In this document: positions 9,540 through 25,682 of the stretch, in pieces
How the letters are laid out: each line of letters begins with the position of its first letter
Position numbering within the stretch: the first letter of the stretch is position 1
From: Lampris incognitus
Taxonomy: Eukaryota
Length of the DNA: 64,000 nt
Direction: 5' to 3'
Assembly (NCBI RefSeq): GCF_029633865.1
Contig: NC_079220.1
Coordinates: 16,722,216 to 16,786,215, forward strand
Notes under the pieces: generated by a model
What the model was told of the DNA's origin: nothing
Databases searched by the model: none
What the model saw: the letters and a program-made list of their open reading frames with translations, nothing else
Made by a program: the position numbers and the translations under genes

Positions 9540-10691
9540 CTGCAAGCCTCGCGGCACCTATCTCTGCCACTCCAGATTCGGGGATCTGAACCCAACTTCC
9601 TTTTGATCGACCGGGGGGATGGAGACCATCGCTCCTCCCTTTCGAACGGCATTCGCCCATCCCTTAAGACCAACTGACCCATGATCAACTGCTGTTCACA
9701 TGGAACCCTTCTCAACTTCGGTCTTCAAAGTTCTTGTTTGAATATTTGCTACGACCACCAAGATCTGCACCCGTGGTGGCTCCACCCAGGCTTGCACCCT
9801 AGTCTTCCATGTGCACCATGGCGGCCCTTCTACTCATCGCGACCTAGCCCTCAAGGCTCCTGCTGCCGGCGACGGCCGGGTATGGGCCCAATGCTCCAGC
9901 CCCATCCATTTTCAGGGCTAGTGCATTTGGGAGACGAAAGTTTCAGCCTGCCTAAGCAATGCGAAGGTGCCACCATCCAACATCAGCAACATCAGCAACA
10001 ATGAGAGGAAAGCTCTCACGAATCTCAGTAAGGACAATATCATCATCGTCTGATGTGGTCTCCAGGCGTGGATGAAGACTCTCTCCTGCTCTCAAACTTC
10101 TTTGCTCCAGTTGATCAGCTAACAGAGCTAATGGCTACTCATACACAGTCTGCTCCGGAGCTGCCTGCCCCAGTCCACTCCAACAAGAGGAGGAAGTGTC
10201 GAAAATTCCCAATGACCCTGGCTTCTTGTGGGAAACACCACAGATGTCTCTCTCCTCCTGCTGTCTACAATCTCGGGTGCCCTCTCAACGGAGTACTGGA
10301 CACAGCTGTGGCCAGTATTGACGTCATCTGCAGCAGCGTCTTGCCAGGTGAAAATGTTTCGATTAGCTCTGCTGCTCCTGATGCTGCCCCAACTAATATG
10401 GCTGACAACATTCAACTGTCTCTTTCTCCCTAGCTTTCTGTCTACAATGGGGGTTGTAAGGACAGATTACCTTGTCTCTCCGATATTAAGTACTGGATGT
10501 CACAAAACTTCCTCTGGTTCAATGAGTCCAAATCTGAGGTCCTTTTATTTGGCCCCCCTAACCTAACTGGCGAGCTGGAAAAGAGTCTAGGGAACCTGTC
10601 CTCCCAATGTTATGCACCACAGATACTTCCAGGTCTCCGTGGTGACGGTGGTCGCCACCTGGATGCTGCTTGACATTTCCCTCATCACATT
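9540..10691 (+). mobile_element. L2-clade-like LINE ORF2 fragment (degenerate RT C-terminal region)
   Basis: Frame-shifted translation shows ...MADNIQLSLSP (a degenerate YADD motif) ...LSDIKYWMSQNFLWFNESKSEVLLFG...LGNLSS, typical of fish L2 RT downstream regions. It continues at 14895 after the intervening insertions. Confidence 0.5.
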
Positions 10692-14439: not shown

Positions 14440-14693
14440 CGGCATGGTGGCGCAGTGGTTGGTGCAGTCACCTCACAGCAAGAAGGTCCTGGGTTCGAGC
14501 CCCGGGGTTGTCCAACCTTGGGGGTCATCCCGGGTCGTCCTCTGTGTGGAATTTGCATGTTCTCCCTGTGTCTGTGTGGCTTTCCTCCGGGGGCTCCAGT
14601 TTCCTCCCACGGTCCCAAGACATGTAGGTCAGGTGACTTGGCAGTACTAAATTGTCCCTAGGAATGAATGGCTGTGTGTATGTGTGTGTATGT

Positions 14694-14751
<58 letters not shown>

Positions 14752-14882
14752 TGTGATGGCCTGGCGGCCTGTCCAGGGTGTCTCCCCGCCTGCGGCCCAA
14801 TGACTGCTGGAATAGGCTCCAGCATCCCCATGACCCTGAGAGCAGGATAAGTGGTTCAGATAATGGATGGATGGATGGATGG
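14440..14882 (+). mobile_element. tRNA-derived SINE, family A (head ggtggcgcagtggtt...ggttcgagcccc; internal (GT)n; tail ...cctgtgatgg.ctggcg.cctgtccagggtgt...ggataagtgg...(gatg)n)
   Basis: A/B-box-like head and a conserved 3' domain. Seven copies or partial copies of this family occur in the window. Confidence 0.8.
14674..14749. repeat. (GT)n inside SINE-A
   Basis: Direct reading. Confidence 0.95.
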
Positions 14883-14894
14883 ACTTGACTTGAC

Positions 14895-15279
14895 TGTGCT
14901 CGCAATTTGGGTCTTTTTTGACTCCAAGCTCTGTTTTGACACACAAATCACTAGGGTAGTGCAGTATTGCTTTCTCCAAATTAGCAACATCGCAAAAGTT
15001 AAGAATTTTCTATCTCAAACGGACCTTGAAAAAGTCATCCATGCACTAATCTCATCACGTCTCGATTATTGTAACTCCCTGTATTCAGGGCTCAGCCAAA
15101 AGTCCATCTCCCACCTCCAGCTCATCCAAAACTCAGCTGCCAAACTGTTAATAAATTCCAAGAGACATGAACACATCACTCCCATTCTTGCAATGCTTCA
15201 TTGGCTACCCGTTAGGTATAGGATTGATGTTAAACTTTTACTAATTACTTTTAAAGCCCTACATGGCCTCGCTCCTACA
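14895..15279 (+). mobile_element. L2-clade LINE ORF2 C-terminus (continuation of 9540..10691)
   Basis: Translation ...QTDLEKVIHALISSRLDYCNSLYSGL...HLQLIQNSAAKLL...HITPILAMLHWLPVRYRIDVKLLLITFKALHGLAPTY, the canonical fish L2 ORF2 end. Confidence 0.75.
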
Positions 15280-16503
15280 TACACTCACCGGCCACTTTAT
15301 TAGGCACACCTGTCCAACTGCTCGTTAACGCAAATTTCTAATCAGCCAATCACATGGCAGCAACTCAATGCATTTAGGCATGTAGACATGGTCAAGACGA
15401 TCTGCTGCAGTTCAAACCGAGCATCAGAATGGGGAAGAAAGGTGATTTAAGTGACTTTGAACGTGGCATGGTTGTTGGTGCCAGACGGGCTGGTCTGAGT
15501 ATTTCAGAAACTGATGATCAACTGGGATTTTCACGCACAACCATCTCTAGGGTTTACAGAGAAGGGTCCGAAAAAGAGAAAATATCCAGTGAGCGGCAGT
15601 TCTGTGGGCGAAAATGCCTTGTTGATGCCAGAGGTCAGAGGGGAATGGCCAGACTGGTTCGAGCTGATAGAAAGGCAACAGTAACTCAAATAACCACTCA
15701 TTACAACCGAGGTATGCAGAAGAGCATCTCTGAACACACAACACGTCGAACCTTGAGGCAGCTGGGCTACAGCAGCAGAAGACCACACCGGGTGCCACTC
15801 CTGTCAGCTAAGAACAGGAAACTGAGGCTACAATTCGCACAGGCTCACCAAAATTGGACAATAGAAGATTGGAAAAACGTTGCTTGGTCTGATGAGTCTC
15901 GATTTCTGCTGCGACATTCGGATGGTAGGGTCAGAATTTGGCGTCAACAACATGAAAGCATGGATCCATCCTGCCTTGTATCAACGGTTCAGGCTGGAGG
16001 TGGTGGTGTAATGGTGTGGGGGATATTTTCTTGGCACACTTTGGGCCCCTTAGTACCAATTGAGCATTGTGTCAACGCCACAGCCTACCTGAGTATTGTT
16101 GCTGACCATGTCCATCCCTTTATGACCACAGTGTTCTCATCTTCTGATGGCTACTTCCAGCAGGATAACGCGCCATGTCATAAAGCTCGAATCCTCTCAG
16201 ACTGGTTTCTTGGACATGACAATGAGTTCACTGTACTCAAATGGCCTCCACAGTCACCAGATCTCAATCCAATAGAACACCTTTGGGATATGGTGGACCA
16301 GGAGATTCGCATCATGGATGTGCAGCCGGCAAATCTGCAGCAACTGCATGATGCTATCATGTCAATATGGACCAAACTCTCTGAGGAATGTTTCCAGTAC
16401 CTTGTTGAATCTATGCCATGAAGGATTAAGGCAGTTCTGAAGGCAAAAGGGGGTCCAACCCGGTACTAGCAAGGTGTACCTAATAAAGTGGCCAGTGAGT
16501 GTA
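15280..16503 (+). mobile_element. Tc1-like DNA transposon A, structurally complete (about 1.22 kb, ~30-bp TIRs, TA flanks)
   Basis: TIR tacactcaccggccactttattaggcacacct at 15280..15311; inverted copy aggtgtacctaataaagtggccagtgagtgta at 16473..16503. Inserted inside the L2 tail. Confidence 0.85.
15429..16421 (+). CDS. Tc1 transposase, 330 aa, uninterrupted (DD34E)
   Basis: N-terminal paired-like HTH (GKKGDLSDFERGMVVGARRAG). Catalytic D (WSDESRF), D (FQQDNAPCH) and E ([10 protein letters not shown]). Confidence 0.85.
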   Translation: MGKKGDLSDFERGMVVGARRAGLSISETDDQLGFSRTTISRVYREGSEKEKISSERQFCGRKCLVDARGQRGMARLVRADRKATVTQITTHYNRGMQKSISEHTTRRTLRQLGYSSRRPHRVPLLSAKNRKLRLQFAQAHQNWTIEDWKNVAWSDESRFLLRHSDGRVRIWRQQHESMDPSCLVSTVQAGGGGVMVWGIFSWHTLGPLVPIEHCVNATAYLSIVADHVHPFMTTVFSSSDGYFQQDNAPCHKARILSDWFLGHDNEFTVLKWPPQSPDLNPIEHLWDMVDQEIRIMDVQPANLQQLHDAIMSIWTKLSEECFQYLVESMP

Positions 16504-17105
16504 TATCACTGATCTACTCACACCCCATGGGCCTGGTTGCTGCCTGCACTCCTCTGGCAGGTAATTTTTAACTGTTCCCTCAGCCAACCTCATTACTAAA
16601 GGCGACCGGGCGTTTTCTATAAGAGCCCCACAGCTGTGGACCTCCCTACCTGAGGAAATTAGGCTAGCAAACTCACTACCGTCTTTTAAATCATGTTTTA
16701 AAACTTACTTTTACAGGAAGGCTTTTTTATAGCAAATCCATTGTTGCCCAATTTTTATTTAGTTATTTTTTATATTGTTTATATCTTATTCTTTTATAAT
16801 TTTAAATTTTAAATTCTTTGTATTTTTATATTTTTCTTTCATCGTCTTATTTTAACTCTTTTCATCATAACCCTTGTTTTATCTGCTCTAATTCTCTTCA
16901 TTTTTATTACGCTCGTGTGACTTTATCCTGATTGTGTTTTACCATGTTCTGTGGAGTGGATCTGGCATTATGTTCTATATTTTTCATTGTATTTTGTTGT
17001 TTAATCTTGACTATGTACGGACATTATTTTGTTCGTACATTTGTTGTGTAAGGCACCTTGTAACATTGTTTAGAAAAGTGAGATATAAATAAAGTTCATT
17101 ATTAT
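16504..17105 (+). mobile_element. L2-clade LINE 3' UTR (downstream part of the element split by Tc1-A)
   Basis: ...agagccccacagctgtggacctccctacctgaggaaattaggctagcaaactcactaccgtcttttaaatcatgttttaaaacttac..., ending in (TTA)n. Confidence 0.65.
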
Positions 17106-21590: not shown

Positions 21591-23147
21591 CCGATCAGCC
21601 AAAACATTAAAACCACCTGGTTTATATTGTGTAGGTCCCCCTCGTGCCACCAAAACAGCTCTGAACCATTGAGGCATGGACTCCACAAGACCTTTGAAGG
21701 TGTCCTGTGGTATCTGGCACCGAGACATTAGCAGCAGATCCTTTAAGTCCTGTAAATTGCAAGGCGGGGCCTCCATGGATTGGACTTGTTTTTCTAGCAT
21801 ATCCCACAGATGCTCAATCACATTGAGATCTGAGGAATTTGGAGGCCAAGACAACACCTTGAACTCTTTTTCATGTTCCTCAAACCATTCCTGAACAGTT
21901 CTTGCAGTGTGGCAGGGTGCATTATCCTGCTGAAAGAGGCCACTGCCGTCAGGGAATACCGTTACCATGAAGGGGTGGACCTGGTCTGCAATGATGTTTA
22001 GGTAGGTGGCACATGTCAAAGTAACATCCACATGAATGCCAGGATTGAAGGTTTCCCAGCAGCACATTACCCAGAGCATCATACTGCCTCCGCTGGCTGT
22101 CTTCTTCCCATAGTGCATCCTGGTGCCATCTCTTACCAAGTTAAACAATGCACACGCAGCTGGCCGTCCACATGATGTAAAAGAAAACATGATTCATCAG
22201 ACCAGGCCACCACCTTCTTCTATTGCTCCATGGCCCAGTTCTGATGCTCAAGTGACCATTGTAGGTGCTTTTGATGGTGGACAGGGGTCGGTCAGCATGG
22301 GCACTCTGACTGGTCTGTGGCTACACAGCAAGCTGCGATGCATTTTGTGTTCTGACACCTGTCTATCATAGCCAGCATTAACTTTTTCAGCAATTTGAGC
22401 TACAGTAGCTCTTCTGTGGGATCGGACCAGATGGGCTAGCCTTCGAGCCTTGGGTGCCCACGACTCTGCCGCCAGTTCACCGGTTGTCCTCTCTTGGACC
22501 ACTTTTGGTAGGTACTGAGTACTGCATACCGGGAACACCCCACAAGACCTGCCGTTTTGGAGATGCTCTGATCCAGTCGTCTAGCCATCACAATTATTTG
22601 GCCCTTGTCAAAGTCACTCAGATCCTTACGCTTGCCCATTTTTCCTGCTTCCAACACATCAGCTTCAAGAACTTCCTGTTCACTTGCTGCATAACATATC
22701 CCACCCCTTGACAGGTGCCATTGTAACAAGATCCATCCATCCAATATCCAAACCACTTGTCCTGCTCAGGGTCGCAGGGATACTGGAGCTATCCCAGCAA
22801 TCATTGGGCGGCAAGCAGGGAGACACCCTGGACAGGCCACCAGGCCATCACAGCGCCAACACATTCATACCTAGGGACAATTTAGTTTGGCCGATTCACC
22901 TGACCTACATGTCTTTGGACTGTGGGAGGAAACCAGAGCACCCGGAGGAAACCCACACAGACACGGGGAGAACATGTAAACTCCACACAGAGGACGACCC
23001 GGGACGACCCCTAAGATTGGATTACCCTGGGGTTCAAACCCAGGACCTTCTTGCTGTGAGGAGACTGCGCTAACCACTGCACATTGTAACAAGATAATCA
23101 ATGTTATTCACTTACCTTTCAGTGGTTTTAATGTTTCAGCTGATTGG
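21591..23147 (-). mobile_element. Tc1-like DNA transposon B, degenerate (frameshifted transposase) with a nested SINE
   Basis: TIR ccgatcagccaaaacattaaaaccacctgg at 21591; inverted copy cagtggttttaatgtttcagctgattgg at 23120..23147. Transposase fragments [14 protein letters not shown]..., ...VHPFMVTVFPDGSGLFQQDNAPCHTA..., ...LVARGGPTQY. Confidence 0.75.
22735..23081 (-). mobile_element. SINE-A copy nested in Tc1-B, with a 14-bp TSD
   Basis: TSD cattgtaacaagat at 22721..22734 and 23082..23095. The head is the reverse complement of gtgcagtggttagcgcagtctcctcacagcaagaaggtcctgggtttgaacc. Confidence 0.8.
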
Positions 23148-24072: not shown

Positions 24073-25682
24073 CAAACCCCAATTCCAATGAAGTTGGGAC
24101 GTTGTGTAAAACGTGAATAAAAACAATACAATAATTTGCAAATCCTTTTCGACCTATATTCAATTGAATACACTACAAAGACAAGATATTTAATGTTCAA
24201 ACTGATAAACTTTATTTTTTTTTTGCAAATATTCACTCATTTTGAATTTGATGCCTGCAACACGTTCCAAAGAAGCTGGGACAGGGGCAACAAAAGACTG
24301 GGAAAGTTGAGGAATGCTCTAACAACACCTGTTTGGAACATTCCACAGGTGAACAGGTTAATTGGAAACAGGTGAGTGTCATGATTGGGTATAAAAGGAG
24401 CATCCCCGAAAGGCTCAGTCGTTCACAAGCAAGGATGGGGCGAGGTTCACCACTTTGTGAACAACTGCATGAGCAAATAGTCCAACAGTTTAAGAACAAC
24501 GTTTCTCAACGTACAATTGCAAGGAATTTAGGGATTTCATCATCTACAGTCCATAATATCATCAAAAGATTCAGAGAATCCGGAGAAATCTCTGCACGTA
24601 AGCGGCAAGGCTGAAAACCAACATTGAATGCCCGTGACCTTCGACCCCTCAGGCGGCACTGCATTAAAAACCGACATCATTCTGTAAAGGATATTACCAC
24701 GTGGGCTAAGGAACACTTCGCCAAACCATCGTCAGTTAACACAGTTCGTCGCTACATCTACAAGTGCAAGTTAAAACTCTACCATGCAAAGCGAAAGCCA
24801 TATATCAACAACACCCAGAAACGCCGCCGGCTTCCCTGGGCCCGAGCTCATCTGAGATGGATTGACGCAAAGTGGAAAAGTGTGCTGTGGTCTGATGAGT
24901 CCACATTTCAAATTGTTTCCGGAAATCATGGACGTCATGTCCTCCGGGCTAAAGAGGAAAAGGACCATCCAGATTGTTATCAGCGCAAAGTCCAAAAGCC
25001 AGCATCTGTGATGGTATGGGGGTGTGTTAGTGCCCATGGCATCATGGGTAACTTGCACATCTGTGAAGGCACCATTAATGCTGAAAGGTACATACAGGTT
25101 TTGGAGCAACATATGCTGCCATCCAAGCGACGTCTTTTTCAGGGACGTCCCTGCTTATTTCAGCAAGACAACGCCAAGCCACATTCTGCACATGTTACAA
25201 CAGCTTGGCTTCGTAGTAAAAGAGTGCGGGTACTAGACTGGCCTGCCTGCAGTCCAGACCTGTCTCCCATTGAAAATGTATGGCGCATTATGAAGCGCAA
25301 AATGCGACAACGGAGGCCCCGGACTGTTGAGCAACTGAAGTCGTACATCAAGCAAGAATGGGAAATAATTCCACATACAAAGCTTCAACAATTAGTGTCC
25401 TCAGTTCCCAAACGCTTATTGAGTGTTGTTGAAAGGAAAGATGATGTAACACAGTGGTGAACATGCCCCTGTCCCAGCTTCTTTGGAACGTGTTGCAGGC
25501 ATCAAATTCAAAATGAGTGAATATTTGCAAAAAAACAATAAGGTTTATCAGTTTGAACATTAAATATCTTGTCTTTGTAGTGTATTCAATTGAATATAGG
25601 TCGAAAAGGATTTGCAAATCATTGTATTGTGTTTTTATTTACATTTTACACAACGTCCCGACTTCATTGGAATTGGGGTTTG
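24073..25682 (+). mobile_element. Tc1-like DNA transposon D (long ~200-bp IR type), complete apart from one nonsense codon
   Basis: Termini caaaccccaattccaatgaagttgggacgttgtgtaaaacgtgaataaaaaca... and an inverted copy ending ...ggaattggggtttg|ta. Internal inverted segments lie at 24130..24300 and 25440..25620. Confidence 0.8.
24333..25460 (+). pseudogene. Tc1 transposase, about 375 aa, one in-frame TGA at 24612..24614
   Basis: ...SARKRQG*KPTLNARDLRPLRRHC...; the consensus has GRK here, so CGA>TGA. Otherwise intact DDE (WSDESTF, FQQDNAKPH, DLSPIENVW). Confidence 0.8.

Follow-up and report, generated by a model that had tools for sequence, protein, structure and literature searches.

The window, that is, the whole 64-kb stretch of DNA that was analyzed, contains at positions 15280-16503 a DNA transposon of 1,224 bp, counted with both of its TA target-site duplications (Table 1). 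Its sequence opens with TA followed by CACTCACCGGCC and closes with GGCCAGTGAGTG followed by TA. An inverted-repeat search paired two arms (15279-15311 and 16472-16504; 33 nt, 94% complementary), and the 30-nt TIRs given here are these arms trimmed of the flanking TA and of one chance base. The left and right TIRs are TA-flanked and differ at two of their 30 positions, in agreement with a first-pass annotation of this DNA, which had reported matching TIRs of about 30 bp with 2-3 differences. A pattern search located the TIR at two sites only in the 64-kb window, against a chance expectation of 0. In comparison with a family consensus built from 22 DNA copies, in which the TIRs are perfect, the left TIR carries a single private T>C at 15305 and the right TIR a single CpG-type change, G>A at 16494; both mismatches of the window copy are derived.

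Table 1. Features of the transposon and of the sequence that hosts it (positions in the window).
Feature	Position	Strand	Description or basis
Host left side, 3' part of decayed LINE ORF2 (...LHWLPVRYRIDVKLLLITFKALHGLAPT-)	14899-15279	+	Joined-frame translation, homologue search
Left TA target-site duplication	15280-15281	+	Reads ...cctaca-TA-CACTC; independent family copies are all TA-bounded
Left TIR, 30 nt, CACTCACCGGCCACTTTATTAGGCACACCT	15282-15311	+	Inverted-repeat search and pattern search
5' untranslated leader, TIR to ATG	15312-15428	+	Colinear and indel-free relative to other copies and Incomer references
Truncated transposase ORF, 330 codons plus premature TGA	15429-16421	+	ATG to stop; degraded first HTH, second HTH, DDE_3
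Premature stop TGA	16419-16421	+	Consensus CGA (Arg331); CpG transition
Untranslated remnant: last 15 codons (RIKAVLKAKGGPTRY) and ancestral stop TAG	16422-16469	+	Same-frame translation
Right TIR, 30 nt	16472-16501	-	Inverted-repeat search and pattern search
Right TA target-site duplication	16502-16503	+	Sequence reading; LINE frame restoration
Host right side, same LINE ORF2 tail (-ITDLLTPHGPG...FYRKAFL, stop), with its own internal stop	16504-16732	+	Joined-frame translation, homologue search

The element lies within another mobile element, as the first-pass annotation had proposed. When the transposon and one TA are removed, the flanks join in a single frame (...FKALHGLAPTY/ITDLLTPHGPG...); exactly one TA has to stay in place for the LINE frame to be recovered. 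The joined peptide has 418 homologues at E<=1e-10, with coverage above 90% for most of the listed ones; PF00078 RVT_1 together with a YADD motif occurs in several of the longer homologues listed, and the alignment of the homologues is gap-free at the insertion junction. From the restored frame, the homologues with RVT_1 and the gap-free junction, it follows that the insertion site of the transposon was a TA in the 3' end of a LINE ORF2, itself decayed. The first-pass annotation had named this LINE as L2, a label that is putative here, as what the homologues show is a LINE ORF2. The 64-kb window contained no "empty site" with this LINE uninterrupted, Pfam gave no match for the LINE tail or for the stop-free pieces upstream, and literature searches with the LINE motif LHWLPV, the TIR string and the carp "CCTN" element returned nothing useful.

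The host LINE was apparently split twice. A piece at about 10434-10650 (CLSDIKYWMSQNFLWFNESKSEVLLFGP) matches the ORF2 segment that directly precedes the piece at about 14899-15279, which implies about 4.2 kb of other sequence in between. Immediately upstream of the latter piece, the region at about 14525-14850 contains a (TG/CA)n microsatellite, visible as His-Thr repeats in minus-strand ORFs, and a repeat shared with 52806-53261, 62565-62803, 23080-22862, 46330-46135 and 56048-56173; the shared sequence probably belongs to a dispersed repeat, SINE-like or of another kind.

Between the TIRs, the 330-aa ORF that had been reported was found again, running from ATG to stop on the + strand (15429-16421). 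In Pfam searches, this ORF matched HTH_Tnp_Tc3_2, which represents the second HTH (E=1e-17, aa 71-142), and DDE_3 (E=9e-12). The catalytic triad had been described as present, and it is: D155, D246 and E283 are all retained, with 90 and 36 residues in between, and with the structure of Sleeping Beauty SB100X (5CR4) the catalytic domain aligns at E=3e-45. The N-terminal HTH, which had also been listed as present, is degraded: the first HTH scores 16-18 bits on HTH_23 in the window copy versus 32 bits in the consensus, with a Pfam cutoff of 24.6; in the ancestral 346-codon frame, interrupted at codon 331, the second HTH and DDE_3 stand above their Pfam cutoffs and the first HTH below.

The ORF had further been called complete and uninterrupted, and here the first-pass annotation was mistaken: the ORF ends at a premature TGA (16419-16421), and the proteins of relatives are 346 aa long. 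Past the TGA, the same frame reads ...ESMP, stop, RIKAVLKAKGGPTRY, stop, and the ancestral frame has 346 codons. The tail is present in all 13 relatives compared (344-348 aa, 9 of them exactly 346 aa), whose C-terminal end is ...ESMPRRIKAVLKAKGGPTRY, with Arg331 in 9 of the 13 and with R332, A335, V336, L337, K338, G342, T344 and Y346 invariant. The 22-copy DNA consensus encodes an intact 346-aa protein and has CGA at codon 331. In addition, the lost tail aligns with the last 16 residues of SB100X, up to the final Tyr; in Sleeping Beauty, the RNase-H-fold catalytic domain that was crystallized comprises aa 114-340, the very end of the protein (PMC4820933). Together, the frame past the TGA, the tails of the relatives, the CGA of the consensus and the SB100X alignment establish that the 330-aa product is a transposase cut short by a CGA>TGA CpG transition, and that the ORF is therefore incomplete. 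An AlphaFold2 model of a full-length relative, based on an alignment of 23 sequences, was poor (mean pLDDT 53.5, catalytic core <40); it predicted the lost segment as a helix at residues 330-340, with a pLDDT of about 50-60 in a model too poor to reveal its contacts. A literature search for an experimental statement on C-terminal truncation of Tc1-type transposases found none.

The spacing between the second Asp and the Glu, 36 residues, is that of DD36E and not the 34 of DD34E/Tc1 sensu stricto; in the alignment with Sleeping Beauty, this appears as a 2-residue insertion in the window transposase relative to DD34E. DD36E is the signature of Incomer (IC), a family that is a sister group of DD34E/Tc1. 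Its description gives a length of ~1.2 kb, a transposase of ~346 aa, TIRs that measure 22-32 bp and duplication of a TA at the target site (Sang et al. 2019, Mob DNA 10:45; PMC6875036). Full-length Incomer elements of ray-finned fish measure 1,099-1,467 bp (PMC6875036, Table 1). The window element, with its 1,224 bp, has the length of an Incomer, and its ends are those of the family: TIRs of 30 nt that begin with CACTC, each bordered by a TA. The left TIR matches the ends of published Incomer references, Table S1 of the Incomer study has 69 entries with the TIR core, and the N-terminal peptide recurs in 14 reference transposases of that study (PMC6875036). Over the first ~400 bp, DNA identity is 95.2% to the Rhinella marina consensus, 95.5% to the Helostoma temminkii representative and 96.5% to the Anguilla rostrata consensus. 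Because of the DD36E spacing, the size, the TIR sequence and this 95-96.5% identity to published elements, the copy was assigned to Incomer. The name given in the first-pass annotation, Tc1 transposon, was accordingly right at the level of the superfamily: HTH and DDE domains, the match to 5CR4, the TIRs and the TA are those of a cut-and-paste element of Tc1/mariner. It was wrong as to the family, which is DD36E/Incomer and not DD34E Tc1. The element is thus a member of a family already described, and not Tc1 proper.

The Incomer type element, from Rhinella marina, has 1,225 bp, 346 aa and 29-bp TIRs (PMC6875036). The window copy resembles Incomer in its DD36E triad, its 1,224 bp with TAs, its 346-codon frame, its 30-nt TIRs starting CACTCACCGGCCACTTTATTAGG and its TA duplication; unlike the reference Incomer, it has a nonsense codon at 331 and about 2% unconstrained private changes, some of them at invariant residues. 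With Sleeping Beauty (SB100X; PDB 5CR4) it shares a bipartite HTH, an RNase-H-fold DDE domain and TA-targeting cut-and-paste transposition, and the catalytic domains align through the C-terminal Tyr of SB100X (E=3e-45). However, the second Asp and the Glu are separated by 34 residues in Sleeping Beauty and by two more in the window element, and Sleeping Beauty is ~1.6 kb long with IR/DR repeats of ~200 bp or more, whereas the window element has simple 30-nt TIRs. Passport, from Pleuronectes platessa, and Thm3, from silver carp, are Tc1/mariner elements of fish like the one studied here; they are native elements whose activity was shown with full-length ORFs, and they provide the benchmark for demonstrably active native vertebrate copies. 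Their lineages differ from the window element (IR/DR, 1.6 kb, DD34E, other TIR sequences), and Passport and Thm3/SB, considered as its family, were rejected on their IR/DR type, their 1.6 kb and their other TIRs. Incomer remnants and IC-derived MITEs in bats (Myotis, Eptesicus) offer a parallel, as they are non-autonomous, with ends kept and transposases truncated (PMC6875036). The bat sequences, however, have large internal deletions (235-aa remnants, 810-bp MITEs), whereas the window copy is full length and has a point nonsense mutation. No experimental transposition assay for Incomer was found in the literature searched.

No second Incomer copy was found in the 64-kb window, and the identical 330-aa protein had no match in the public assemblies searched. 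Since the window thus offered no second family copy with which to measure in-genome divergence, decay was assessed against the cross-source consensus of 22 copies, from which the window copy differs by 42 substitutions and 0 indels. Among the copies gathered from public contigs, the closest (L007) is 96.7% identical over all 1,224 bp and is an independent insertion with different flanks; two fragments from Merluccius polli are ~96% identical to the window copy, and a copy with an intact ORF (L001) is 94.2% identical. In a three-way comparison over 1,212 sites, 26 private changes (2.1%) were counted in the window copy, 11 in L007 and 15 in the Merluccius copy L002; these counts are approximate, as the consensus comes from public contigs of different species, with the source genome not included, and some "private" changes may be lineage-specific instead of post-insertion. 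About 22 of the 26 differ from the overall consensus too. The window copy keeps 30 CpGs versus 34 in the consensus, and with this retention (30/34) and 0 indels it is younger than the average sampled copy. If neutral sites are assumed to change at ~2-5e-9 per site per year, the ~2% of private divergence would put the age of the insertion in the order of a few million years.

The private coding changes comprise 17 non-synonymous and 3 synonymous substitutions (ω ~1.7); neutrality is compatible with these numbers (p=0.59) and ω=0.2 is rejected (p=6e-5). Between lineages of the family, ω is 0.23-0.33, and for the window copy versus the consensus it is 0.98. The pattern of private changes fits neutral drift. 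Private replacements at conserved residues are A29D, L31Q, W46G, R72G, M112L, P237S, I256L, E262G, E290D and T301A; at five of these positions (A29D, W46G, M112L, E262G and E290D) all 13 relatives agree, and R72G changes the basic GQRR linker. Unlike an autonomous element, the copy has a TGA at codon 331 of 346, and it shows unconstrained decay with changes at residues that are invariant in the family.

We therefore regard the element as a Tc1/mariner DNA transposon, represented by a single genomic copy of DD36E/Incomer that died recently and is probably non-autonomous, a reading to which we give a probability of roughly 85%. The mechanism of Tc1/mariner transposition is established: bound to the TIRs, the transposase cuts the element out and integrates it at a TA, which is duplicated (PMC4820933). 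By analogy, an Incomer transposase would have bound the 30-nt TIRs, excised the element and inserted it at a TA; this target TA, inside the 3' coding end of the LINE ORF2, would have been duplicated on insertion. Thereafter, the copy has evolved free of constraint, with ~2% private substitutions and no indels. The nonsense mutation at codon 331, whether inherited from the source or gained by CpG decay, removes the last 16 residues of the catalytic domain with its RNase-H fold. Of the missense changes at conserved residues, A29D, L31Q and W46G lie in the first HTH, R72G in the basic linker, and E262G and E290D in the catalytic domain. Because of the nonsense codon and the missense changes at conserved residues, the copy's own product is most likely inactive or severely impaired. 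As each TIR has one derived change only, a full-length transposase of the Incomer family, produced at another place in the genome, might nevertheless still mobilize the copy in trans.

Whether the stop arose before or after the insertion was considered separately. The same C>T at codon 331, giving TGA, is also found in L007, L064, L006 and L017, and the L064 protein (P0003) has 330 aa as well. One may suppose that the TGA was inherited from a source shared with L007, its closest copy at 96.7% identity and an independent insertion with other flanks, so that the window copy would have been non-autonomous when it inserted and would have been moved in trans by full-length members of the family. 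However, CGA is retained in an equally close Merluccius copy (L002b), and also in L001 and L063; besides the stop, the window copy and L007 have no exclusive common substitution; and the same C>T occurs in three copies of other sub-lineages. Moreover, a CpG site of the family has decayed, on average, in 31% of the copies, versus 3.9% for other sites. Decay at the CpG of codon 331 affects 8 of 13 copies, more than at any other CpG of the element, and the frequency of TG at this site (5/13) is similar to that at other CpGs (6/18, 6/19 and 4/10). Given this similarity, recurrent and independent CpG decay is enough to account for the shared stop. An inherited stop is thus possible but on balance rather unlikely. 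It is a variant of the best explanation, from which it differs only in the timing of the stop, and if true it would mean only that the copy was non-autonomous already at insertion.

The first-pass annotation had seen here an intact, recently mobile and possibly still active autonomous Tc1 copy, whose own ORF would be a working transposase. What survives of this view is that the copy is fairly young, with no indels and ~2% private divergence. In its favor, the full DDE triad, the second HTH and the TA duplication are intact, the TIRs have 2 mismatches only and there is no frameshift, and the definition of "intact" used in the survey papers would include it. However, the premature stop removes 16 conserved C-terminal residues of the catalytic domain, the private changes are those of neutral decay (17 non-synonymous, 3 synonymous), the 13 relatives are invariant where this copy has W46G, A29D, E262G, E290D and M112L, and the first HTH is under the Pfam cutoff, with R72G in the basic GQRR linker. 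An intact and autonomous copy is therefore very unlikely. It would likewise be highly improbable that a 330-aa product without the last catalytic helix is functional, either as an active transposase or as an inhibitor of the full-length Incomer transposase, and that the copies with TGA331 form a propagating truncated sub-lineage. Exaptation of the ORF as a domesticated transposase gene, or selection for a truncated transposase with a regulatory or inhibitory role, is hardly credible: a long ORF is kept and several copies share the truncation point, but the element has also kept the marks of a mobile copy, its TIRs and TA duplication, ω on the copy's own branch is ~1 or higher, the copy sits inside a dead LINE without sign of a host gene context, and ordinary CpG decay explains the recurrent stop.

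The first-pass annotation had also held that such a copy is uncommon in vertebrate genomes, which fails for ray-finned fish. Incomer is present in 132 species among the ray-finned fish and intact in 33 of them (PMC6875036), and intact copies of ZB, ZB-like, SB and SB-like elements, which are Tc1 types, were each found in 26 to 183 surveyed genomes, most of them from ray-finned fish (PMC9777934). In these surveys, "intact" means a target-site duplication, TIRs and an ORF of >=300 aa, or 314-356 aa for fish Incomer (PMC9777934, PMC6875036). An ORF of more than 300 aa with a DDE triad and good TIRs passes filters of this kind even when, as in the window copy, a CpG nonsense mutation has removed the conserved catalytic end; because such filters let truncated copies through, censuses can overestimate the number of active elements. 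The proper annotation of the copy is DD36E/Incomer, truncated and decaying; it is neither Tc1 (DD34E) nor a candidate active transposon. More generally, it is a known kind of element in ordinary decay, and it matters little beyond its correct annotation.

Rarity is further countered within the window itself by a second Tc1-like element, of another family, at about 58501-60090. Its ORF (58802-59827, + strand) is an uninterrupted 341 aa and keeps the tail (...ARGGHTHY, followed by the stop), its 36-nt TIRs match at 94%, and its protein has 31.6% aa identity to the Incomer copy. Pfam matches are HTH_Tnp_Tc3_2 (4e-24) and DDE_3 (4e-16); its spacing, counted by hand, is that of DD34E. Of this element and the Incomer copy, it is the better candidate for being intact and autonomous. 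Tc1-like transposase remnants with 30-47% aa identity to the Incomer copy were found at 21624-22639 (-), 24435-25457 (+) and 45088-46467 (+); one of the three is reduced to a 278-aa ORF that starts at an internal TTG, and one runs over more than one frame. Tc1/mariner debris is dense in the window.

Fish Incomer transposases also stand under misleading labels in public databases, such as "transposase, partial [Vibrio parahaemolyticus]" and, in Fundulus, "Mitochondrial ribosomal protein L58" (protein matches P0091 and P0033), and Incomer sequences occur on many contigs labeled "metagenome" (loci L003-L062). The family is reported to be absent from prokaryotes (PMC6875036), and these labels most likely reflect host-DNA contamination or mis-annotation, not true bacterial occurrence. 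In Merluccius polli (JAOPHQ010003430.1, locus L002, 2439-3809), two Incomer fragments lie head to head on opposite strands and meet near 2862, and both are annotated within a 418-aa chimeric "Tcb2 transposase" gene model.
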